Below are positions 1,165-34,203 of a stretch of 39,474 bases of DNA, piece by piece. Source of the stretch: Thelocarpon superellum. Its lineage: Eukaryota. Each line of letters begins with the position of its first letter. Positions within the stretch are counted from its first letter, which is position 1. Below the pieces are notes generated by a model. It was not told where the DNA came from, ran no database searches, and saw only the letters and a list, made by a program, of their open reading frames with translations. Location: positions 1 to 39,474 of the forward strand of contig JAPEUG010000129.1 in the NCBI GenBank assembly GCA_026025795.1, given 5' to 3'. Position numbers and translations under genes: made by a program.

Positions 1165-3370
1165 ATGGGCATTCTGAACGACCCGACTACAGATGAGGTG
1201 CCAGGTGTGTTGGCGTCAATTGGCCGCGTCCTCGGGCCGGGACAAGGGAGAACCGGGCTGATCACGTCATGCCATCGCAGGCTCCGTGCTCCTGCTTTCG
1301 TCCTCGCATCATAATGAGCCGCTCGGTCTCCACCATCAGCCGGCGCGAACGTCAGCCTCGTCCCTCCCGTCGTCATATGTCCTCCCTTCCCCCGCATTAT
1401 CCCGCCAGGTGGAGGACAAGAAGAAAACCGCCGATGGCCTGATCATCTTGGACCCACAACCGGACGAATCCTTGAACGACCCCTTGAACTGGCCGGCGTT
1501 GAAACGGGACGTGGCCCTGTTGTCCCTTGGCTTCTACTGCATGGTCGGCGGCGGGATGACCCCGATCCTGGCCGCAGGCTTCACCGATGTCGCTCAAACC
1601 TACGGCGTCTCCATTCCCCAGGTGGCACGGACCACGGGCCTCTATATGCTGGGCCTTGGCCTTGGCTCTGTCATCTCGTCGCCCACGGCAATCCTGTATG
1701 GGAAGCGGCCCGTCTACCTCGTAGGCATCGCCTGTTTCTGCGTCAGCGCGGTCTGGTGCGCGGCCTCGCCGAGCTACATCTCCTTGGTGCTGGCGCGCAT
1801 CGTCCAGGGCATTGCCGTGAGCCCGTGCGAGAGTCTGCCGTCGGCAACCATTGCCGAGATCTTCTTTCTGCACGAGCGGGCCTATCGCGTGGGCGTCTAC
1901 ACGCTCTTGTTGCTCGGCGGCAAGAACTTGATTCCCCTGGTCAGCGCGGCCATCATCGAGGGTCTCGGCTGGCGCTGGGTCTTCTGGATCGTGGCCATGG
2001 TCGTGGCGTTGTGCTTTGTGCTGCTGTTTTTGTTCGTGCCCGAGACCTTCTGGGACCGGACCCCGCGGCCCAAACATCGGCACAGTGGCGCCGGGGGAGC
2101 GCGAACACTTTCGGCCATTTTTGGACACAGCCCACTCACCCCACCTCCCACCAACCAGAAGCACGAAACGTCCAGTGCGCACGATGACGTGGGCAAGGTG
2201 ATCGACAACTACTCCTTGGATGACCCGGCGCCCGGGAGCCTCGCGCATCGTCGACAGCACAAGGAGTCGCACGTGGGATGGGTAGATGGGAAACCAGCCA
2301 ACGAAGGTGATGGCCCCACTGCGGAGACGATAACCAAGGCGCCTGCCAAGGAGTCCGACCCGACAACTCGCATGTCCACTCGCATCGAAGGTGTCGTGGC
2401 AGATGGTGCGGGGCCAAGGCACGCTGGCCCCTCTTCACCCACCTCATCGTATCCGCCGACCGCCCGGGGGCCCAGCCATGTATCTGACGAGGAAAAAGGA
2501 GAGAGGCATGACACCGCGACCGAGGATTCGACCCACCCGGCGGAACAGAAGCCGGACGCCGGGCGCGTACCGCCCAGACCAAGACCAGTGCGGTACACGA
2601 CGCATCTGAAGACTCAGCCACCACGGAGCTTCCTGCAGAGCCTCAAGCCCTGGAACGGGCGATTGCGTGAGGACCCGTGGCTGCGCGTCGCCATTCGACC
2701 CTTTATTCTCTACGCCTACCCCGCGGTGCTCTGGAGCACGCTGGTCTACTCCTTGAGCATCGGCTGGCTCATCGTGCTTTCGGAAACGGTGGCGACCATC
2801 TACCGGAGCCCGCCGTATAACTTCACGGCGCTTGGGGCTGGTCTCGTCTACGTCTCGCCCTTCATCGGCGGCGTGCTGGGAACCGCGGTGGCGGGCAAGG
2901 TGTCGGATGTCATCGTACGCTTCCTGAGCCAGCGCAACGGCGGCCTGTACGAACCCGAATTCCGGCTGGTCATGGCGATCCCCGTGGCCATCACCACCTG
3001 CATCGGCTTGATGGGCTTCGGATGGTCGGCACAAGAGCAGGATCGGTGGATCGTTCCCACCGTCTTCTTCGGCGTCATCAGTTTTGGCTGTTCGCTTGGC
3101 AGCACGACGGCCATCACTTTCTGCGTCGATAGCTATCGGCAGTATGCGGGCGAAGCCTTGGTGACGCTTAACTTTTCCAAGAACGTCTTCCACGGTCTCG
3201 TCTTCTCGCTCTTCTTCAATATCTGGCTGGAAGCCGACGGATCGAAGGCCGTTTTCTTGGCCATTGGCGGCATCCAGCTCGGTTGCCTGCTCACCACCAT
3301 TCCCATGTACATCTACGGGAAACGCGCGCGGATGTGGACCGTGAGGCGGAACCTCATGGAGAATTTTTGA
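1165..3370 (+). CDS. MFS transporter (DHA1/HOL1-like), ~709 aa; exons 1165-1204, 1281-3370
   Basis: ATG at 1165 (MGILNDPTTDEVPG). Intron 1205-1280 (GTGTGT...GCTGAT...CAG) joins in frame to the 1286..3370 ORF. Motifs DPLNW, YGKRPVYL, IAEIFFLHERA, GWRWVFW and PEFRL; two hydrophobic halves separated by a long loop. Confidence 0.92.
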
Positions 3371-3998
3371 CGCGCTGCTGGGGCATGGAAGGGCGACAGG
3401 CGATCAGCGGAGGGCGTCAGATTGTGCAAAGCGCCGAACGGTCCGGTAGAGCATTTCCTCGTAACACCTTGCCCTATCCAGCACTACCTAGCTCTCCCTA
3501 GCATGGACACTGTATTCCAAAGTACTCCCACTTTCACTCATGACGCTTGTCTGAGTCAGGAACCAAGCGTCTAGCACGTCCCGGCCAGGAGGCTGACGGT
3601 CGCTGGCGGATTAGCCGCGTACGAGGTCAGGATGACACACTGATGCTCGAGTGGGCCAGGCAGCGAGAATGAGGAGTGGCGAGCGAAGGCGTCATAGCAG
3701 ATGGTCCAGCATCGGTAGGACCAGCGACTTGCTAGTGCCCAAGTTGCATTGATTGGTGCATAGTTGCGGTGGGATGTGGATAAGGATGTGATGATGGCTG
3801 GTGCTGCGTCTCCTAGGAGCGTGACTAAGTAGTGCTGGAGTACTTGTAGTAGCACCACCTCTGGTGGAGGTAGCTCCTGCAGGTCCTCGTAGGTAGAAGA
3901 ACCTGCTGTGCCGTGCGTCCTGGCTGAGGACGAGCACGGCGGTGGATGGGTCGGCGTGGCAGCGCTGAGGTAGAGTCCGGCGTTGTATAACATAGAAG

Positions 3999-4088
3999 TG
4001 TAGGAGCGCGCACGTGACCTGGTCACGTGCCCACTCCTATTACTATCCCGACTACACGTAGATTAGCAATTCAGCTCTGATGCCTACA
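3999..4088. mobile_element. 90-bp non-autonomous element (solo-LTR/TRIM- or MITE-like), copy 1
   Basis: Termini TGTAGG...CCTACA (inverted). GAAG flanks both sides (3995-3998, 4089-4092). Differs from the reverse complement of 9621-9711 by 6 substitutions and 1 indel. Internal dyad GCACGTGACC-T-GGTCACGTGC at 4010-4030. Confidence 0.8.
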
Positions 4089-5051
4089 GAAGTTACTCGT
4101 GCTCTTGCTCTTACTCGTACTACGAGTAAGTATACGAGCAACTGCTATGAAAGACAGGTGCGAGCGCTCGTATCTCCAACGACCCGAAAATACTCGTAGC
4201 TGTCCCACCTGCCCCATTTCGGTCCTAGGCAGCCTCACCCACGGCTCTGCACAAGAAGAAGACTCTGCCGAGCCCCGGATCTCCCAGGAATGACTGCCGC
4301 CCAGCGAAGTGGTGGTCCGTAGGCCGCTGGTTACCAATCCGCGGGGGTCCTTGGGCTCCAGGCTGCGGGCTAAGGCTGCGAAACGTTGGAGCTACCTCTT
4401 CATCCCACGCACCAATTGACAAAGAAGCCTGGATCGCTCGGTTTAGTACCACCAAGCGCCAAGCCACCGGATGCTCCCCGCGCCCGGCGAGCCGTAGTGC
4501 CCGGACGTGGACCCTCGTGTAGGAGGACCGCCTCATGATTGGCAGGTCGACGACTTCGTCGGCGCCGCCACTAAGGTCATCGCATCGCTGTTTACGCGAT
4601 CTTGAAGTCATCCTTCCGAGCGCCGGTTATCCTGCAAGCATCCATCAAGGTAGGTCGTTACACCCTGTCTGCCCCACCCCGCCACGGGTGCCCGAGTCCG
4701 CTCGACCCAGACGCTCCACGGCACGTGCTGGACATGATGCGGTCCGAGGGCTTGTTGCGCCCTCCGGCCTCCGGCCGGCGGCGTGAGCTCCACTCGTTGC
4801 GAGAGCACGAGGTGCTATTTGTTGGTCAACAGGCCAGGGCGAGGAAGAATCTTGTTCCGGTTGAGGATCGACCCGGCGAGGTATGAGAACGTCACAGCCG
4901 TTGTGGGAGCTTCCCCGCACAGACGCAGGAAGGAGTACTTGACCGAGCCGCTCGGCCTTCTGGTCTATGGGAATTGATCGCCGTCATCCGGGAGCTTCCT
5001 CGCCCAGACCCTTCGACATCCATCCGTCATTGATTGCTTCATTTTCTCATC

Positions 5052-6820
5052 ATGCCTAGCCTGCTCACTTGCTTGGCGCTCGTCGGCCTGAGCACCGCGT
5101 CGGCAGCGATCAAGCGACAGGCCGTTGTGCACACCACATTCTCCACAACAACGGTGACGGCAGGTTGTTGCAGCTCGAGCTTAAGCGTGACTTCTTCTGT
5201 GCCAGATTACTTCCAAACCAGTCCCGAAGTATTCGCAGGTTCGATGCCGATGTCCTGCCTCTGATGAGATCATGGCCAACTGATCGCCGCGGCAGGTCCG
5301 ACAAAAACGGGATCCGCCCCATTCTTGGCCGAGACCAACCCGGCACCATTCAATGAGCAATACTCATTTATCGCCAATGCCCCGCTGGAGACAGCTATCC
5401 CGATCACGGGTAACACACAGAATAAGAGCATCTTCCAACTGGTTGGCCAATTGAGCTCCTATTTCCCTAATCCCGACGGCTTTGGCGCCCTGGAGTACCC
5501 ACTCCCTGCCGGCGCCAACATTTCCCAAGTTCACACCCTCCATCGACACGGCGCTCGGTATCCCACCACTGGAAGCAATGTTCAAGCCTTCGCGAGCCGC
5601 ATCGCCGCGGCCAAGGGCAAGTTCAACGCAACTGGCCCCCTTGGCTTCCTAAACACGTGGACCTACCAGCTGGGGGCTGAGATCTTGGTTCCTCGCGGAC
5701 GTCAAGAGTATGTCATTCCGCCGCCAAACTCCCCTGGCATTGCTGATGGACGGGTAGGCTATTCGACTCCGGCGTCCTCCATTACTACAACTACGGCAAA
5801 CTGTACAATCCTGCCACCAAGATCATTGCCCGCACCACGACGCAGGACCGTATGCTCAAGAGCGCGGAATATTTCATGGCGGGATTCTTCGGTCTGGACT
5901 GGACCAAGAATGCCTCGCTCGAAGTCATCATCGAAAACCCTGGCTACAACAACAGCCTGGCTGGCTATAACCAGTGCAACAATTCGAACCTACCTGTCAG
6001 CGAAGGCGGCAACAATGCCACCTTAGCCTGGGAAGCTGTCTACCTGAACAACGCCACGGCGCGTTTCCAGAGCATGATCAAGGGATACAATTGGACTCTC
6101 ACCGACACCTACGCTGCGCAGACCATGTGCCCGTACGAGGAAGTGGCGTTTGGCTATTCCGCCTGGTGCGGTCTCTTCACCTACGCGGAATGGCTCGGCT
6201 TCGAATATTCCATCGACCTCAACTTCAACGGAAACGATGGCTTCGCTTCGCCGGCGGGTCGCGCCGTCGGCATTGGCTACCAGCAGGAGATCCTGGCGCG
6301 CCTCCAGAATCATACGTTGACCACTCCCAACACCCAAGACAACATCACCCTCGATAACAACACCACGACCTTTCCCCTGAACCAGACCCTCTACTTTGAC
6401 TTCTCGCATGATACCAACATCATGTCCATCCTTACCGCCTTTGGCCTGACGCAGTTCCGCGAGAATCTTCCTGAGACGGCTATCCCCGCCTCGCGCAACC
6501 TAATCGTGTCACACCTGGAGCCATTTGGCGCCCGCCTCAACATCGAGATCATCAAGACGCCGCAGCCCGTCCCGGCGAATCGGTCCACGAACTACGTCGC
6601 GGGGCCGCCGACGACCTATGTTCACTTCATCCTCAACCAGCGCACGCTCCCGCTGAATGTCAGCTTCCCCACGTGCGGGAACCGTGTGGACGGCTGGTGC
6701 GAGCTCAACACCTTCATCAGCACCCAGGCCAACGCCCTGTCGCTGGCAAACTACAACTTCGCCTGCAACGGCAAGTACCCTGCCGTGCCCTATGGCAACG
6801 TCACCAATGGCGCTCCGTAG
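5052..6820 (+). CDS. Secreted histidine acid phosphatase / 3-phytase, ~553 aa; exons 5052-5238, 5296-5707, 5758-6820
   Basis: Signal peptide MPSLLTCLALVGLSTASA; catalytic RHGARYP and HD (FSHDTN) motifs; many N-x-S/T sites. Introns 5239-5295 and 5708-5757 restore one frame (FAG|PTKTG; RQE|LFDSG). Confidence 0.93.
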
Positions 6821-7359
6821 ACCGCTTCTGCTCTGCACACGCTCATTATTCACTGCCATGGCCACCCGCCTCCGCGCCGTAATTCCGCCTGCCTCTGGAG
6901 TCCTCCATGATATATTCCTCCCCTGACGCTGCCGCTAAAGCCCGAGGCCATTGCCTTCTAATGAACGAGCCGTGTCCAATCCCGGCTACGTCTCTCTTTG
7001 ACCACGGCGCTCCTTACGTACATACGAGTAAATAATAGATCGCGCGCCGGCTCTGCGCCCATGCACCTCCGTTGTCTGACATTGGTCGTGCCAGCAAGCT
7101 TAGTAGGAAAGGAAAGCACGGAGCTTCTGTGTGATGTCACGAAAATAAACGAGCTGAATTGAAATTCCTTATTCCCGCATCCGTGCGTTCCTGCCTATAT
7201 CACGTCGTTGTGTACTCATGGCCAGCCAACCATACCCACACGTGTGTCGCGTCCAATGACGTCCGAGACCTCTCCGTCTAGATGTCGCTATGCCACGCTA
7301 TGCAATGAATGATGAGAAATCTCCGAAGGATAACAAACGCGAACGTAGGGTCGCTGGTG

Positions 7360-8106
7360 TCAGGGCAGCAGCGGGTCGCATTCCTTCTCGTCGAGATGCG
7401 GAGTGCTTTCGGACTTAGAGGGAGGTGCTGACGCGGTGGGTGCGAGGTGGATCGGTCCGCTTGACGGACAGCAGATGGATCCGGTCCTGTGGAGACGGGA
7501 TCTAGTCAGTTCCGACATGACGGGAGGCTGGTTCCGCAACCGACATGACGGGAGGCTGGTTCCGCAAACAACGTACTTGGTCAGGAACTTGAACGCCAGC
7601 TCGATCATGGCCGTCATGGCCACGAATCCCAAAACCAAGCCCACCACCAACAGTTGCAGCGCCTTGTGGGGCGGAGACCATGCGCCGAGGTGGTCCAGCT
7701 CGCGCTGACAGGCAAGCATGGGCAAGATGCCAAGCTCTTGCAGCGCCGCCACGGCGGCCGTCGGCGCCGCCGCGTCGGGATTGTGCAGGGTCAAGGACGG
7801 GATCGGGATGCGTAGTCGAGGGGTTCGAGAGAGGGCCATGAGTTGAAAGGTCGTCAACGGTCGCTCGTTCCACATGATCTTGGTGGGAATCGGTCGTGGC
7901 TCTTCGGGGTCGTCCGCCGTACTGACCACGGTAGGTTCAGACTCTGGTGTGAAGTGGATGGCGACGGGTCGGTGGTTGAAGAGCGCGTGGAGTTGTGCCG
8001 GCGACAGACTGGACGAGACCCGACGACATATGGAGGAGATGGGTGCGGCGGATGCGGGAGTGACCAGCAGGACGCCGAGCGCGAGGGCGAGGCACGGCAG
8101 CTTCAT
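7360..8106 (-). CDS. Small secreted / type I membrane protein of unknown function, ~218 aa; exons 8106-7577, 7486-7360
   Basis: Signal peptide MKLPCLALALGVLLVTPASA from ATG 8106; TM helix LLVVGLVLGFVAMTAMIELAF; intron 7576-7487 (GTACGT...CTGAC...CAG). Confidence 0.65.
   Translation of the reverse strand: MKLPCLALALGVLLVTPASAAPISSICRRVSSSLSPAQLHALFNHRPVAIHFTPESEPTVVSTADDPEEPRPIPTKIMWNERPLTTFQLMALSRTPRLRIPIPSLTLHNPDAAAPTAAVAALQELGILPMLACQRELDHLGAWSPPHKALQLLVVGLVLGFVAMTAMIELAFKFLTKYVVCGTSLPSCRLRNQPPVMSELTRSRLHRTGSICCPSSGPIHLAPTASAPPSKSESTPHLDEKECDPLLP
7512..7567. repeat. Perfect 28-bp tandem duplication inside an intron
   Basis: CCGACATGACGGGAGGCTGGTTCCGCAA at 7512-7539 and 7540-7567. Confidence 0.95.
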
Positions 8107-9620
8107 GGCTGACGTCGAAGCGCGGCAGCGGGCCGACGAGAGAGTCGACTCGACCGACGGAGAGGCTCTACATGTAGGCACGAGCACAACGGTCAGCATA
8201 GCCATACATATACGAAGGCACAACATGACACAATCGCGTCGTACAATGGGCGCAGTGGCTGCACGTACTAGGGGGCCTGCACGCCTGACTATGCACGTAG
8301 CATCGACGGGCAACTTCTGGGCGTGAGCGCTTGGCGAGTCGCGGGTCGCGATGGCGGAGCAGGCATTCGTGACACTCAGGCAGGTTGACACTCGACGATG
8401 GGGGAAGGGGAGACGGTTTTAAAAGGACCCTCCAAACCTCCACAGCAACGCGCAGGCCAATTCAAGGTCAGCGGGCCAGACCGGTCCGACCAAAGGACGC
8501 ATAGCGCAGGTCCTGGCCCATATATTGCTCGCCCAACACGCCCGTGACGCCGCACCTATTAGGCGGTCGACGCAAATTACTCTTGACCGGCTGGTCCGGG
8601 TATTGCGTGCTATGGGGTGCGGGCGTGGCGGATCTGCGTGCACCGGCACTGGCTCTTAGTGGCGTGCACGTGTGGCGGTCGACTCGCGGGGCATTGCACC
8701 CGAACCTTGAGCCACACCAGCGAGCCCTATGGCGAGCCTGCGTTGAGCCAGGTGCCTCGCTCGGATCTACCTGCGCCAAGTCTCCTGCCAAGCCTGGAGG
8801 GGCCTCAGAGAAGTTCATCGGCCGCAATGATGATAATAAAGCACTGTGGCAAGTGGGCGCGGGGGCCGTCTCTTCAAGTTGGCCCCCGCGCCTTCCTAAA
8901 CAAGTCGCGCTCTGCCATGGGTCAATCATGCAGCGTCGCTTCGTGCCTTGCCGATGCCTGATGGCTCTTACTACGGGGACCGAGAACCTAGTAGGTAAGG
9001 TGAGGAGCGAGGAGAGGAGCGCGGCTCTACTCGTACCATCCTCGTACAGTTGTCAGATAGTAGTGTCGCGTGCTCGCCCTCCTCGTCCGCGCCGATCCTA
9101 CCATTGGTTCCGTGGACGTGTTCAGGTCGTGTTCGTGCCGCCATTGGTCGACGAGAGCTGCGTGAGGCCCTCCCCGCCTTTTCCACGCGGTGCGCCCGTG
9201 GAGGCTCCGCTTCGAGGTAATGCGAGTACGCGGGTTCTACGCGTCTGGCTTACGAAGCTGGGGAGTCCGGCGTCCCAAAGGCCGTCTTTTCCAAGTTCCC
9301 TAGACCATTCCGCTAGGACGGAGATCCCCCCAATGTGAATCGGTTTCCTGCACCGCAATCCCGGAGGAAGGGCAGAAAGGCGCTGACAATAATGCGAGGT
9401 TGCCAAGGCTAGATTGGTCCGGTGCGCATCTTCTATGCGTTCAGCCGGCGGGCTCCTAGCGGAAAGGTAGGGTGGTGCCGTATCTTGGGGGCTCCTCACA
9501 GTGGACCATCCCAAGCCTCATGGTATTCTCGGCCCGCAAGCGGACGGAAATAGGATTACAGTGCTGCTACGTTTGAGTCGCTGTGGCGGTGTAGAATAGC
9601 ATTGAGTACTATGTTAGTAG

Positions 9621-9711
9621 TGTAGGAATCAGAGCTGAATTGCTAATCTACGAGTAGTCTGGGATAGTAATAAGGGTGGGCACGTGACCAGATCACGTGC
9701 GCTCTCCTACA
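9621..9711. mobile_element. 91-bp non-autonomous element, copy 2 (opposite orientation to copy 1)
   Basis: Termini TGTAGGA...TCCTACA. GTAG flanks both sides (9617-9620, 9712-9715). About 92% identical to 3999-4088. Confidence 0.8.
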
Positions 9712-10168
9712 GTAGTAGTATGTCGGGTTCGTCGTAGGCGAAGGTGTACCCTGGAGTCGCTTGGGCACCTTTTGGCCCCATGGACGATCTGACATGGGCA
9801 AAGAGGCTCATCACGCCCATTGGTTGAACAGGCCATTGACACGGTAGCCAAGAGTCCTCGAAGATAGCACGAGGGTCGCCAGAAGTATCTTGGAAAGAGA
9901 AACCAGCCGATGGGCTCATGGGCTCATGGTGCCTCAATGACGGGCGTGGATATAACCCAACATAAACTACTATGTTAGTAGTAGTCGGGGCACCTCCGAG
10001 GTAGAAGAAGGGCCGTGGTTGATGACATAATCATACGAGGTTCGATGTGATTCTCATTTGGCCCCGTGCTGTTGACGCAGAAGGACGAGGTTCAGGCTCT
10101 CGTCTTAGTAGTCACGGCACATCCTGCCAAGACTGATGGAATCACGATGACCAGCAGCCCCCCGGAAC

Positions 10169-11769
10169 ATGCCCGCCGAGGCAGGATACCCGCGACGGAT
10201 GTCTGGGGGACAAGCCATGCAGCATACCTTCGATCCATATCGAGCGGACCGAAGCCATCTGGCCCCTGAGGATGCCTTCTTCGCCCACTCTCCGCCGCAA
10301 CGGCCGCGATCATCGAGCAAGGCCGAGGCACCGGCAGCGGGGAACGGGGCAGTGGCGAACGAGTCGCTCAAACGCGTGCTCCTGCGCGGGGTCAACGGCA
10401 CGCAACGTCGCCCAGAGAAAGAGCGCGGCCGTAGCGGCAGTCGGCGGCGGAAAGGCGTGTGGAAGAAGCTACTCTGGGTCAAACAGTCCTGTCCGGATCC
10501 CCCGTCCTCCGTGGCTGACCTCATCTGTACTGACCATGCGCGGGCATAGATCCGGACAATTACACCGACCAAGAGACCTTTCTCGACCATTGGCAGCTCA
10601 ACCCGCGGTGGCAGCCCTACGACTTCTGGCCGCTGGTGGCCGACTCGACGGTGATCGTGCAACACGTGTGCTCCGTCATCATCTTCGTCTGTTGCTTTGT
10701 CGGCATCTTTCAAGAGCGCACCTCGCCCGTCACCGTGGTTGGCTTCGGCAGCTTTGGCACGGTCGTCGGATGGGTGCTATGGGACTGGTGGGTTGCGTCG
10801 GAAGACGGCAGCACTGCTTCGCTCGAGGCCGTGGCCGGAGCAGGCAGCAGCGTGGGCGCCGGAACAGGAGCCGGAGCAGGCAGCAGCGTGGGCGCCGGAA
10901 CAGGAGCCGCAGCAGGCGCCGAGGAGGGATCGAGCGCCAGTTCAACCTCGAGCTCCTTCAACGCTGGCTTGCCCGGCAAGGACGAGACACCGGTGCATGG
11001 CCTCGGGCTCTCGATGCCATCCTTGCAGACCGGACCGAGCCACTCCCACAGCGCGAGCGCCACCTCACTACAGTCGAACGCGTCGGCCGCTTCTCCGGAC
11101 ACGATGGGTCCTCCCCCGGGGGCGGCGAGCTTCGTCAGCTCGAGCTACTACCCGCCGTATGGCGCGACGGATTCGCCCTTTTCCCCGCGCAACCAGCAGC
11201 GCCTGGCGACGGCCAAATCGGCCTTGCTCATCTACTGTGCGCTTCTGGGACTGAGTCCCATCCTCAAGTCCCTCACCAAATCTACGACGAGCGACTCCAT
11301 CTGGGCCGTCAGTTGCTGGCTCATGGGCATCAACGTCTTCTTCTTCGACTACAGCGGCGGCGTGGGCGTCAAGTTCCCGGCGTCGCTGTCAACGAACGCG
11401 GCGCTGATGGCCTCCACCGTGCTCGCGTCACGGCTGCCGTCGACGACGCATGTCTTCTCCCTCACCCTCTTCTCCATCGAGGTCTTTGGGCTGTTTCCGG
11501 CCTTTCGTCGTCACCTCCGTCACGTCTCTTGGCGAGGCCACCTGGCGCTGACCATCTGTCTCATCACGGCGGCGGGGGGAGGCGTCGGGGTGACGAGTTC
11601 AGGGGGCGGTTGGAAGGCGGCCATTGTGGGGATTGTGCTGGGGGGATTCCTGACCGCGCTGGCCATGGGTGGGTGCAGCTGGTGGTTGATCGGCTTGCAG
11701 AAGTACAAGAACGAGATCCATGGGCCATGGGATCCGGCGCGGCCGGTGATCCGGAGACACTGGGATTGA
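10169..11769 (+). CDS. GPI2: GPI-GlcNAc transferase subunit PIG-C/Gpi2, ~513 aa; exons 10169-10490, 10550-11769
   Basis: Intron 10491-10549 yields WKKLLWVKQSYPDNYTD. Further family motifs LSPILKSLTKSTTSDSIWA, SLSTNAALMASTVLASRL and C-terminal LQKYKNEIHGPWDPARP. Exact start ATG uncertain. Confidence 0.93.
10834..10905 (+). repeat. 36-bp coding tandem duplication (AGAGSSVGAGTG x2) in GPI2
   Basis: GCCGGAGCAGGCAGCAGCGTGGGCGCCGGAACAGGA at 10834-10869 and 10870-10905. Confidence 0.95.
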
Positions 11770-12277: not shown

Positions 12278-14498
12278 ATGTCTCTGGCCGCTCCCGGTCG
12301 TTCCGGCCGCTCGCGGTCCAAGTCGCCCGGCGGCCGGCACCGCGAGAGATCAACGAGTCGAGCGCGATCGCCCACACGCGACACCGAAGTGGTCAAATAT
12401 GAATATGCCGAGGAGTCGTACAACTACCCTCCCGCTCCCCAGGTTCCTGATGCGCCGACGGGCCATCTCTCGCAGGGACGCCATTATTCCTACTCACAGC
12501 CCCACACGCAGTACGATACACGTCCGCCGGCCTCACCACAGCCAGGATACGCCAAGCCTGGGCAGTATCAGCATGCCGATCCAAGCGCATATTACCAGCA
12601 CCCGTCGCACGAGTCCATGCCTGGCGAATTCCCCCGGACTCATGAATACGCCCAGGTGACCCACGAAGAGCGCACGCAGTATGCCACTCCCGGACGATAT
12701 GAGTATTCGAAGAATGACCATCAAGACCGACGCGGTCCGCCGCACCCGGAAGCCACGCGACATCTCTCGTTCAGCACCGGGGGCAACTTCCACGTGGACA
12801 TTGGCGGCGGCCAAGGGTCTCATCAACACGATCGACCGGAATACGTCCAGTCACCCAGCTATGCCTACGCGCAGCCGCCACCGCTCGCACATTCGGAGAG
12901 CGGTCATGGACATCCGTCCACCCGGCCTCCAGTACGTGGGCAGCCTGCGCATGGTCCGACGTACGCCTCGCCGTCCGAGTATCAATATGCCCGCCCCGAC
13001 GAACGGATCCAATACAAGTACAAGCAGGGGAAGCATTCGGGCTCGTACGAGGAGAAGGACGAGGCCGAACGGATCGAGTACCAGTACAAGCAGGGGAAGC
13101 ATTCGGGCTCGTACGCGGAGAAGGAAGAGTCCACCATCATCGAGGTGCGCCCTGGAGGTTCTCATCGACCCCCGCCATCGCCCGGTTTGACCCCACACAT
13201 GCATCGTCTCTCGGTGAGTGGAGGAGCGCCGGGGTCGTTGGGACATGGCCTTGGCCATGGCCATGGCCATGGCGGTGGTGGCCTGCCCCCGGGGTCACCA
13301 TTGCTGGAGGCCTACCACGGCACTTATCAGTCCATGTCGCCCATGCCGTCGCCCATGGCATTGCCTGCGTCGTTAGATGACGGGCTTGATGACCTCGACA
13401 CTCTGTCGGACCTGGACTCGAGCGACGATCCTCGCCGGCGCACCGGGTCGAAGCGGGTCAAGTTCTACGACCCGGAAGATGATGCCAAGGCGCTGTCAGC
13501 CGCGCTCCGAGGGCGTACCGTCGACGAGGCGGTGCTGATTGAGGTCCTGCCGGGGCTGACGCATGACCACATGCTGCTGCTGCGGACGGAATACAAGAAA
13601 CATGCCAAGGTGCAGGGCAAGGGGATCAACATTGCCAAGCACATCAAGATGAAGTGCCCCACCTCGTCCTTTGGTAAAGTGGCCTACGCCACGGCGCTGG
13701 GACAGTGGGAGAGCGAGGCACACTGGGCCAACCTGTGGTATCAGAGCCACACGTCGCGGCGCGAGCTGCTGATCGAATCCTTGATGGGCCGCACCAACGC
13801 CGAGATTCGCGAGATCAAAGAGGCCTTCAGCGACAAACGCTACAACGACAGTCTGGAGAAGTGCATGAAGGCGGAGCTGAAGGCCGACAAGTTCCGCACC
13901 GCCGTCCTGCTCGTGCTGGAGGAGAAGCGCATGGAGGAGAGCAACGTGCTCCGGGGCGACGTGGTGCGCGACGACGTCCGCCGTCTGTACGATGCCCTCA
14001 GCGGCCGCAGCGGCGGCGAGACCGTCATGATCCAGATCGTCGTGACGCGGTCGGACTCGCACCTGCGCGAGGTCTTGCGCGTCTACGAGAAGACGTATAA
14101 CAAGAACTTTGCCAAGGAGATGCTGCGCAAGTCCACCAACCTCGTCGTACGCCCTCCTCTGAGCTCCATGCCTTTTCTTCCCTCCCCTTTCCTTTCCTCA
14201 CCGAGCCGTGCTGACCGGACTACACCAGGGCGAAACGCTGGCACACATCCTGAACGGCCTCATCAACCGACCCGTCCGAGACGCCCTGCTCCTGCACCAG
14301 GCCATCGAGGAGACGGGCAAAGAACGCACGGAACTGCTCATCTCGCGCCTGGTGCGGTACCACTGGGATCGGCCGCACCTGGAACGCGTGAAGCAGGAGT
14401 TTCGGGCGCGATATGGCGAGGAGCTGGCCACTGCATTGGCCGAGAGCACCAAGGGGGATTTTGGGGAGTTTTGCGTCGAGTTGGTTGTGAGGAGGTAG
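12278..14498 (+). CDS. Fungal annexin, ANXC4-type, with long disordered N-terminus, ~712 aa; exons 12278-14146, 14229-14498
   Basis: Annexin-like repeats (YDPEDDAKAL, LIEVLP, RELLIESLMGRTNAEIREIKEAF, VTRSDSHLREV, TKGDFGEFC). Intron 14147-14228 (GTACGC...GCTGAC...CAG) gives STNLV|GETL. The upstream in-frame ATG at 12050 is less likely. Confidence 0.88.
13001..13132 (+). repeat. 66-bp (22-aa) imperfect coding duplication in the annexin N-terminus
   Basis: ERIQYKYKQGKHSGSYEEKDEA / ERIEYQYKQGKHSGSYAEKEES; units start at 13001 and 13067. Confidence 0.9.
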
Positions 14499-32413: not shown

Positions 32414-33796
32414 CTAAGTACGATCCAGCTCCCCTTTCCAATCGCCAATATGGCTCGAGATGATATCCGCTGCCCGTTCAGCGCTATACTGGCGCCCTAT
32501 AGCCTCGACAAAGTCCCCTTGTGGGTCTGTTTGGTGCACTCCATTAGCATGCTTGCTGACCACAGGTGGATCGGACACGAGAGAGAGGCGGGGGGAGAGG
32601 GGACACGGACCCATGAGATAGAAGTATATACTATGATCCACCAGATAATCCTGGCCTGGCTTCAGGGTAGGCGGAGTGGAGAAGTAGACACGGTACGCCT
32701 TACACACCGCCTTGACCTGGTCCCAGGTGCCGGTGAGGCCGATGAGCGCGGGGTGGAACTCGGCGAGGTAGGACTTGATCACGGCGGGGGAGTCGCGGGC
32801 CGGATCGCACGTGATGAAGACGGGACGCATCACGGACCCGGAGCTGGAGCGGACCAGGTCGATCATCGTCGCCATTTTGTCGAGCTCTTCGGGACAAATG
32901 TCGGGACAGTGGGTAAAGCCAAAGTAGACCTGGGGGCCACAGCACAACGATGAGCGGAATGTCGGGTAGGTGGGTAGGGGAGGTGGAAGTGGAGGTGGAG
33001 GTGGAGGTGGAGGTGGAGGTGGAGGTGGAGGTGGAGGTGGAGGTGGAGGTGGAGGTGGAGGTGGAGGTGGAGGTGGAGGTGGAGGTGGAGGTGGAGGTGG
33101 AGATGGAGGTGGAGATGGAGGGGGAGGTGGAGGGGACTTGGGATGGGAGAGTAGAAGGAATGGCAGACGTACCAGGGCGTATTTCCCCTTCATATCCTCA
33201 CTCGTGAACCGCTTCCCGTCCTGGTCCACGAGATCAAAGTGCCCGCCCACCTTGGGCTTCCCCGCGCCTTTCGCTGCATCCGCGACGCGCTTCCGCTCCA
33301 TCCGCGCCTTTTCGTACCTGAAATACGTGATCAGGCCCGCGCCGGACGCGAGGAAGAGGAGGCCTGCTTTCCATGAGAAGGGCTACATCTCACTCACTCC
33401 GCCATCAGTCCGACTCTCCAATGCAGGTACGAGGCAAAGTGGGGGACCGGGGAGGGGAATGTGGCAGCAGTCATGACCCACCCCCGACCGCTGCTTCGCA
33501 CGCGCTTCTTGAACGGTTTTGTATCTCAAGTGAGGCTGCGAGGTGCTGAGGCTCCGCGTCTGTGCTGGCGTCGAACGAGTGGCATGTTGTAAAAGCGGAC
33601 GAGACGCCTTGCAGGGTGGATAGTGCGGTCGCGAGGACTGCGAGAGGCGCCGGTGACAAGTCGAAGAGCGGGAGGTGGGGAATCGCGATGGCGCTGCGCC
33701 GGTCGTGTTGGCGCGCGTGGCGGACTGGTGGAGGGCGCGGTAGAGCTGATACTGCTGCCTCCATGGCGATGAGACCGGTAGCGATGAGAGACGCAT
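32414..33796 (-). CDS. SCO1: Mitochondrial copper chaperone Sco1, ~318 aa; exons 33796-33482, 33382-33173, 32929-32611, 32526-32414
   Basis: Basic, Ser-rich presequence; GPFSWKAGLLFL TM; GKPKVGGHFDL; VYFGFTHCPDICPEEL (CxxxC); YLVDHSIYFYLMDP. Confidence 0.95.
32979..33134. repeat. (GGAGGT)n hexanucleotide tract, ~26 units, inside SCO1 intron 2
   Basis: 18 perfect units at 32991-33098, flanked by GGAAGT/GGAGAT/GGAGGG variants. Confidence 0.97.
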
Positions 33797-34060: not shown

Positions 34061-34203
34061 ACTACGACTACGACCACTGCCACTACCACTACCACTACCA
34101 CTACCACTACCACTACCACTACCACTAGTCCGTCCTATGATCAAGACATTGTCTTATTCTTGTGGGTCCTGTCTGACTACCCATGCCCATGCCCATGCCC
34201 ATG
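34061..34203. repeat. (ACCACT)n and (CCCATG)4 microsatellites upstream of SCO1
   Basis: ACTACC-type units at 34061-34127; CCCATG x4 at 34180-34203. Confidence 0.9.

Follow-up and report, generated by a model that had tools for sequence, protein, structure and literature searches.

Solo long terminal repeats (LTRs) are the commonest repeats with TG...CA ends in fungi. The LTRs of retroelements are described as having short inverted repeats of about 7 bp at their ends and conserved TATA- and AATAAA-type motifs (PMC3601003), and LTR elements are reported to generate target-site duplications of 3 to 6 bp (PMC10045372). Gypsy LTRs share TGTNR termini with the Ginger elements, according to the account of the latter (PMC2836005), for which duplications of 4 bp (Ginger1) and 4 to 5 bp (Ginger2) are given (PMC2836005, PMC10045372). 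Ginger2, reported from protists, fungi, and animals, combines TGTNR ends and 4-bp duplications with a 6-bp target, R-TATA-Y (PMC2836005), and the IS3EU and GingerRoot elements are described as duplicating 6 bp, with TA...TA or occasionally TG...CA termini (PMC10045372). Repeat-induced point mutation (RIP) is reported to need a minimum length of ~400 bp in Neurospora (PMC3227409; bioRxiv 10.1101/2020.11.12.379651), and in another filamentous ascomycete short TRIMs (miniature retrotransposons with terminal repeats) and MITEs (miniature transposable elements with inverted repeats) with hundreds of copies are thought to evade it by being <400 bp (bioRxiv 10.1101/2020.11.12.379651). Here, we describe two ~90-bp stretches in a gene-dense, 39,474-nt sequence (~61% G+C) of the lichen fungus Thelocarpon superellum (contig JAPEUG010000129.1 of assembly GCA_026025795.1, referred to in its full length as the window). 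They are independent insertions of one lineage-specific, noncoding mobile family, which probably has several hundred copies in the genome of this ascomycete.

Copy 1 occupies positions 3999 to 4088 on the plus strand (90 bp, with the ends TGTAGG...CCTACA), and copy 2, which is inverted relative to it and more diverged, occupies positions 9621 to 9711 on the minus strand (91 bp). Copy 1 and the reverse complement of copy 2 align from end to end, with 84 of 91 columns identical (six substitutions and one indel; E = 1.4e-29 in a blastn-short comparison within the window), and a repeat search of the whole window returned the two as its longest inverted repeats. Beyond TGTAGG/CCTACA, the flanks match only as often as random sequence would (at 5 of the 20 left-hand and 4 of the 20 right-hand positions). 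Each copy is enclosed by its own perfect duplication, GAAG at 3995 to 3998 and 4089 to 4092 in the case of copy 1 and, on the plus strand, GTAG at 9617 to 9620 and 9712 to 9715 in the case of copy 2; given the base composition of the window, a 4-bp flank match has a chance probability of 0.0047 per copy and 2.2e-5 for both. An A precedes each left duplication (3994 and 9616) and a T follows each right one (4093 and 9716), so that the same letters are also readable as 6-bp repeats, AGAAGT and AGTAGT. The initial annotation of the window had claimed two ~90-bp copies whose similarity ends at TGTAGG/CCTACA, each with its own flank duplication of 4 or alternatively 6 bp; the alignment and the chance-level flanks confirm the former, and both versions of the latter are present in the letters.

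The TGTAG termini fit the TGTNR pattern, and the element has the TG...CA ends within a short inverted repeat (TGTNR or TGTTRNR type; PMC3601003, PMC2836005) that characterize LTRs, the inverted match between its two ends being 6 bp long in the first copy and 7 bp long in the second. Both window copies have a 4-bp duplication (or one of 6 bp in the alternative frame), which lies inside the range of 3 to 6 bp given for LTR elements. Both insertions lie in AT-rich surroundings, the 15 bp on each side having a G+C content of 37% and 40%, compared to 61% for the window. No third copy or fragment was recovered in the window with blastn-short, the remaining matches, aside from the palindrome of the element itself, being of 12 bases or fewer.

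The evidence for a dispersed family comes from the contigs of four public sequencing runs (X1 to X4), which were placed on positions 3000 to 10700 at a likeness of at least 80%. X1 is the best-matching run, containing 0.93 of the sampled words of positions 3400 to 4700, compared to 0.18 for X2 and X3, which are moss metagenomes; no RNA run was among the runs listed as containing the region. Single-copy contigs in X1 have a depth of ~150 to 180 (e.g., 161.5 for the contig spanning 3000 to 4028). Over the element the summed depth, which is not itself a copy number, reaches 99,094 at position 4056 in copy 1 (73 contigs; ~610 times the single-copy level) and 35,425 at position 9653 in copy 2 (42 contigs; ~220 times that level). 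It is from this excess that the figure of several hundred copies is read, and the presence of two copies in 39 kb agrees with hundreds genome-wide in order of magnitude. Groups of X1 contigs break off precisely at the borders of the element: among those listed, 10 contigs do so at 3998, 14 at 3999, 12 at 9620, 8 at 9621, 4 at 9714, and 5 at 9717. The loose ends at these borders agree with their consensus at just 0.43 to 0.56, and the flanks therefore differ between copies. The majority letter at 4056 is G (98,099 of 99,094 depth units in X1), where copy 1 differs, and, of the positions listed, 9653, 9673, and 9675 are those at which copy 2 departs from the majority; in such tables, which lean to the consensus, as contigs drop rare variants, copy 1 is one letter and copy 2 several letters removed from the majority form.

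The family is also present beyond the X1 sample. In X2 and X3, the single-copy parts of the region have a depth of ~2 to 3, and position 4056 has depths of up to 190 and 272, respectively (8 and 9 contigs), with loose ends that again differ from one another; a strain diverged by a few per cent therefore also carries the family. A contig of 467 letters, found in X2 and X3, spans positions 3558 to 4025 with 10 other letters and one gap and suggests that copy 1 is at the same site in the moss-metagenome strain, although its 27 letters within the element, below the 31-letter rule, are too few to establish this. In X4, which derives from another species in the same study, depth was zero in the bins holding either copy, and just 14 contigs were placed on the region, compared to 631 in X1. 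A 24-mer of the element had no match in collections of metagenome, genome, and viral contigs. Three metagenome loci that matched a 21-letter pattern taken from the palindrome described below were set aside as chance or bacterial sites, as they share the palindrome alone and no other sequence of the element.

One of the two copies appears, with moderate confidence, to be polymorphic within a single sequenced sample. A contig of X1 joins position 9615 directly to 9711 at a depth of 79.6, about half of the single-copy level, skipping 95 bases, with six letters that fit either side. The skipped bases amount to the element plus one duplication, as expected for an unoccupied site, and the contig is thus a candidate empty allele of copy 2 without a footprint. 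Independently of this, the contig of the adjacent flank (8486 to 9621; depth, 117.3) ends precisely where an occupied allele would begin to differ from an empty one. In the same run, copy 1 has full depth. More than one fungal haplotype seems to be present in the sample around copy 2: over positions 8382 to 8657 and 8486 to 10195, X1 shows two letter states at a ratio of ~2:1 (93.8 of 141.5 at 8382, 8383, and 8436), four positions at which the only letter seen is not that of the window, and a depth of ~117 to 122 against ~165.

These observations also bear on the possibility that positions 3999 to 9711 form one composite transposon of 5.7 kb with the two copies as its terminal inverted repeats. 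The inverted orientation of the copies and their spacing of 5.5 kb are what such an arrangement would give, but the other observations contradict it, and we give it practically no credence. The outer flanks differ (GAAG and GTAG), and each copy has a perfect duplication of its own; only copy 2 (95 bases) is missing from the candidate empty allele; and many contigs bear single copies with other flanks. Moreover, the interior contains a histidine acid phosphatase gene, and no match to the reverse transcriptase, integrase, or transposase families of Pfam was recovered among the 54 distinct window open reading frames (ORFs) scanned, a scan that covered 52 of the 83 ORFs of at least 150 amino acids (aa), with the remaining 31 being mostly overlapping alternative frames.

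The prediction of a high-copy family in the initial annotation is thus substantiated by the many X1 contigs with differing flanks and by summed depths of 200 to 600 times the single-copy level, and the empty site that it had advised looking for has a counterpart in the one contig that is built as an unoccupied allele of copy 2 would be. Its premise that the combination of TG...CA ends and a short duplication is a mark of LTR-type integrases and Ginger transposases is in line with the published descriptions (PMC2836005, PMC10045372, PMC3601003). Of its proposal of a solo LTR/TRIM or MITE family, the part concerning a mobile family has gained the further copies and the candidate empty site, and the LTR is placed ahead of the MITE by no more than a narrow margin. 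What is common to both readings, namely, that this is an integrase-type miniature mobile family, we regard as very probable.

Because the TGTAG ends fit TGTNR and the 4-bp duplication matches the reported lengths, a retroviral-integrase-like DDE enzyme acting in trans would be the agent of insertion. Such an enzyme is predicted to recognize the short inverted ends TGTAG...CTACA and to link the CA-3' ends to a target that has been cut with a stagger of 4 bp, whereupon gap repair would yield the 4-bp duplication. It would favor A-NNNN-T sites in locally AT-rich intergenic DNA. This target preference is drawn from three sources: the two window copies; a nested insertion inferred from a contig of X2; and the share of junction contigs that keep a G before the element, about half of those listed (10 of 24 contigs at one end, 12 of 20 at the opposite one). 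The X2 contig joins 4049 to 9620, i.e., one copy's left half to an inverted end of a second copy, with nine letters between them (depth, 3.56; side, 28 letters), and we read it as an insertion into the central palindrome of the element, again at A-NNNN-T.

The same letters admit a different frame, in which the true duplication is of 6 bp (AGAAGT, AGTAGT), the element is an 88- to 89-bp unit with the ends GTAGG...CCTAC, and the enzyme is an IS3EU/GingerRoot-like transposase, for which 6-bp duplications are reported (PMC10045372). The repeat does extend to 6 bp in both copies, which would have a chance of ~1/256 if the A and the T were random neighbors, and the joint of the empty allele likewise shares six letters. 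However, the termini would then be GT...AC, which correspond to no family in the descriptions consulted; those described for IS3EU/GingerRoot are TA...TA or occasionally TG...CA (PMC10045372). The listed X1 loose-end groups begin at the T (3999, 9621) or one base outward (3998, 9620), and none begins at the G behind the T; therefore, either the T travels with the element there or the target T is nearly invariant. Furthermore, a preference for A-NNNN-T combined with a 4-bp duplication explains the same letters, much as R-TATA-Y does in Ginger2 (PMC2836005). We accordingly consider the 6-bp frame improbable.

Internally, the element contains an imperfect palindrome, which in copy 1 spans 4001 to 4039 (39 nt; element positions 3 to 41) and consists of two 19-nt arms (4001 to 4019 and 4021 to 4039) that are 89% complementary and separated by a single nucleotide. 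Folded as single-stranded DNA, it has a predicted energy of -16.1 kcal/mol (z = -3.55), and the opposite strand has one of -21.2 kcal/mol (z = -4.69). The outer arms echo the left terminus of the element, and the core contains two CACGTG boxes (4011 to 4016 and 4024 to 4029), each of which reads TCACGTG on one strand. With the majority G at 4056, the center of the element reads as a second palindrome, of 10 bp. In copy 2, changes private to this copy weaken the large palindrome (arms 76% complementary), which is evidently not maintained after insertion. The motifs AATAAA, TATAAA, and TATATA are absent from both strands of both copies. No Rfam match was recovered in positions 3800 to 9900 (E ≤ 1), and no tRNA gene was found in the window. 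An unrelated imperfect palindrome of 41 bp (4100 to 4140; 20-nt arms, 80% complementary, 1-nt spacer) is found 12 bases to the right of copy 1; it is composed of repeated TACTCGT/ACGAGTA units and may be a relic of a different small foldback element or else native to the site.

As to the class of the element, we favor, on a tentative basis and at somewhat less than even confidence, the reading in which every 90-bp copy represents a solo LTR. Such a copy would have been left behind by LTR-LTR recombination in a retroelement with very short LTRs, most plausibly a small, nonautonomous, TRIM-like parent serviced by a coding element of the Ty3/Gypsy type. Both the remnants and a TRIM-sized parent would be below the ~400 bp needed for RIP, allowing the family to multiply in a filamentous ascomycete; insofar as the Neurospora figure can be carried over to this fungus, shortness may explain the abundance. 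The inverted ends of 6 to 7 bp look LTR-like rather than like the terminal inverted repeats (TIRs) of DNA transposons, given the ~7 bp of LTRs and the 40 to 270 bp quoted for the TIRs of Ginger elements (PMC2836005). Solo LTRs and TRIMs, such as RLX_TRIM_Sinope of Parastagonospora nodorum (bioRxiv 10.1101/2020.11.12.379651), are among the closest counterparts of the element, sharing with it TG...CA ends with an inverted repeat of ~6 to 7 bp, a short duplication, a noncoding nature, occurrence in hundreds of copies, and, for a filamentous ascomycete, a length beneath the RIP limit.

Several points weigh against a solo LTR. We saw no direct pair of copies, primer-binding site, polypurine tract, gag-pol, or integrase in the window, and the only two copies that it has face in opposite directions, with ordinary genes in between. 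The missing TATA and AATAAA motifs count against membership only weakly because such signals are loose in fungi. Little space remains for U3, R, and U5 in 90 bp; to our knowledge, this length is at or below that of the shortest known LTRs, and it is shorter than any that we can name. The usual duplication of fungal Ty1/Ty3 elements is 5 bp and not 4. The polymorphic copy 2 is the diverged one, differing from copy 1 in 7 of 91 columns, and its polymorphism would fit the remobilization of an old copy, as in a DNA transposon, more easily than fresh retrotransposition. Finally, the shorter side of the empty-allele contig is of 24 letters, below the 30 advised for metagenomes; 24 plus the 6 shared letters is what a bubble contig built on 31-letter words must have.

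Some of these points are more readily accommodated if the 90-bp copy is the whole mobile unit, i.e., a Ginger2/Tdd-style, stand-alone MITE from an integrase-like superfamily of cut-and-paste transposons, a reading that we rank just behind the solo LTR as a real, if again tentative, possibility. A transposase from one or a few autonomous copies elsewhere would excise and reinsert it with a 4-bp duplication at R-NNNN-Y. The element resembles Ginger2/Tdd in its TGTNR termini and in a 4-bp duplication within a 6-bp purine....pyrimidine target that is AT-rich (PMC2836005), both window copies being at A-NNNN-T in flanks of 37 to 40% G+C, against 61% for the window, and the inferred nested insertion in X2 being at such a site too. 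A foldback occupies its left 43 bp; the left terminus recurs in the arms, so that the structure resembles a TIR pair. Polymorphism of a diverged copy is what would be expected if any old copy can move, and an autonomous partner present in a single copy would presumably be immune to RIP. Abundance, small size, and the lack of coding capacity also fit a MITE, with a uniformity of size that is that of the 90- and 91-bp copies.

The MITE has its own difficulties. The TIRs given for Ginger2/Tdd extend over 50 to 180 bp (PMC2836005), whereas the ends of this element match over only 6 to 7 bp. As for MITEs in general, whose TIRs usually have at least 10 bp, the match of 6 to 7 bp stands beside a palindrome with 19-nt arms that repeats the left terminus internally. 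The inner target bases are GAAG, CTAC, and CATG, none of them the TATA core that is reported for Ginger2 (PMC2836005). No transposase was recovered among the scanned ORFs of the window. The candidate empty allele has no footprint, and a site that was never occupied fits it equally well. We know of no Ginger family described from filamentous ascomycetes. Other fungal MITEs offer a looser parallel: the EFT families of Epichloe are similarly short, noncoding, abundant, located near genes, and too short for RIP, but they are described as having TIRs of 29 to 61 bp and duplications of TA, AT, or TWY that are typical of Tc1/mariner, PIF, and similar superfamilies, and none in that description combines TGT...ACA ends with a 4-bp duplication as this element does (PMC3227409).

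Upstream of copy 1 is a transporter gene of the major facilitator superfamily (MFS; exons 988 to 1206 and 1274 to 3367), and the protein encoded by ORF 1262 to 3370 has homologs at 64 to 66% identity in other lichen-associated ascomycetes. Copy 1 begins 629 bp past the MFS stop codon and ~1.2 kb ahead of the ORF of a branch-2 histidine (acid) phosphatase (5268 to 6820). Copy 2 sits between ORFs without an assigned identity and a GPI2 homolog (10534 to 11766). The other genes in the window encode an annexin-repeat protein, a septin, a potassium-channel-like protein, a helicase, and SCO1. Several simple repeats also occur: a perfect 36-bp tandem duplication at 10834 to 10905, upstream of or within the GPI2 gene region; a 66-bp tandem duplication at 13000 to 13131 (91% identical), inside the annexin-repeat ORF; extended runs of a GGAGGT-type 12-bp repeat at 32943 to 33175, with 14 overlapping copies of a 77-nt frame, which overlap the SCO1-domain ORF (32417 to 33382, minus strand); and a 12-bp ACCACT-type repeat at 34061 to 34127.

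The CACGTG-binding factor Pho4 classically targets the acid phosphatase genes of yeast, and the CACGTG boxes of copy 1 are ~1.2 kb upstream of the histidine acid phosphatase gene, which in this one case is probably a coincidence. More generally, CACGTG is reported to be the favored site of the yeast basic helix-loop-helix (bHLH) factors Cbf1 and Pho4, with TCACGTG being the form favored by Cbf1 (PMC8256859); by analogy with yeast, the boxes in the palindrome may be read by factors of the Cbf1/Pho4 type in this lichen fungus.

We found no description of this element in the titles and abstract openings of the literature on Thelocarpon, lichen transposable elements, or short LTRs (Repbase and Dfam were outside this scope). 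To that extent the family is new, but its kind, be it a solo LTR/TRIM, a Ginger2-type MITE, or a fungal MITE more broadly, is already known, and it does not overturn current views of transposons. A bolder proposition combines three claims: that the 90-bp unit is either moved directly by an integrase-like transposase or is the shortest working LTR, that it has reached hundreds of copies by escaping RIP, and that it acts as a mobile CACGTG cis-regulatory module. We consider this combination unlikely. If true, filamentous ascomycetes would have their first family of Ginger2-style MITEs, or else this would be the shortest LTR known to work, and every jump would place a palindromic pair of Cbf1/Pho4-type CACGTG boxes beside a gene.

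In any event, the family adds an unusually small and abundant element of the integrase type to the few repeat families known from lichen-forming fungi. With its class settled, it would either push down the known minimum size of LTRs or bring Ginger-type transposons into the filamentous ascomycetes, and it would be a further case of mobile DNA evading RIP through shortness. The paired E-boxes that it carries make a regulatory side effect of its insertions testable.

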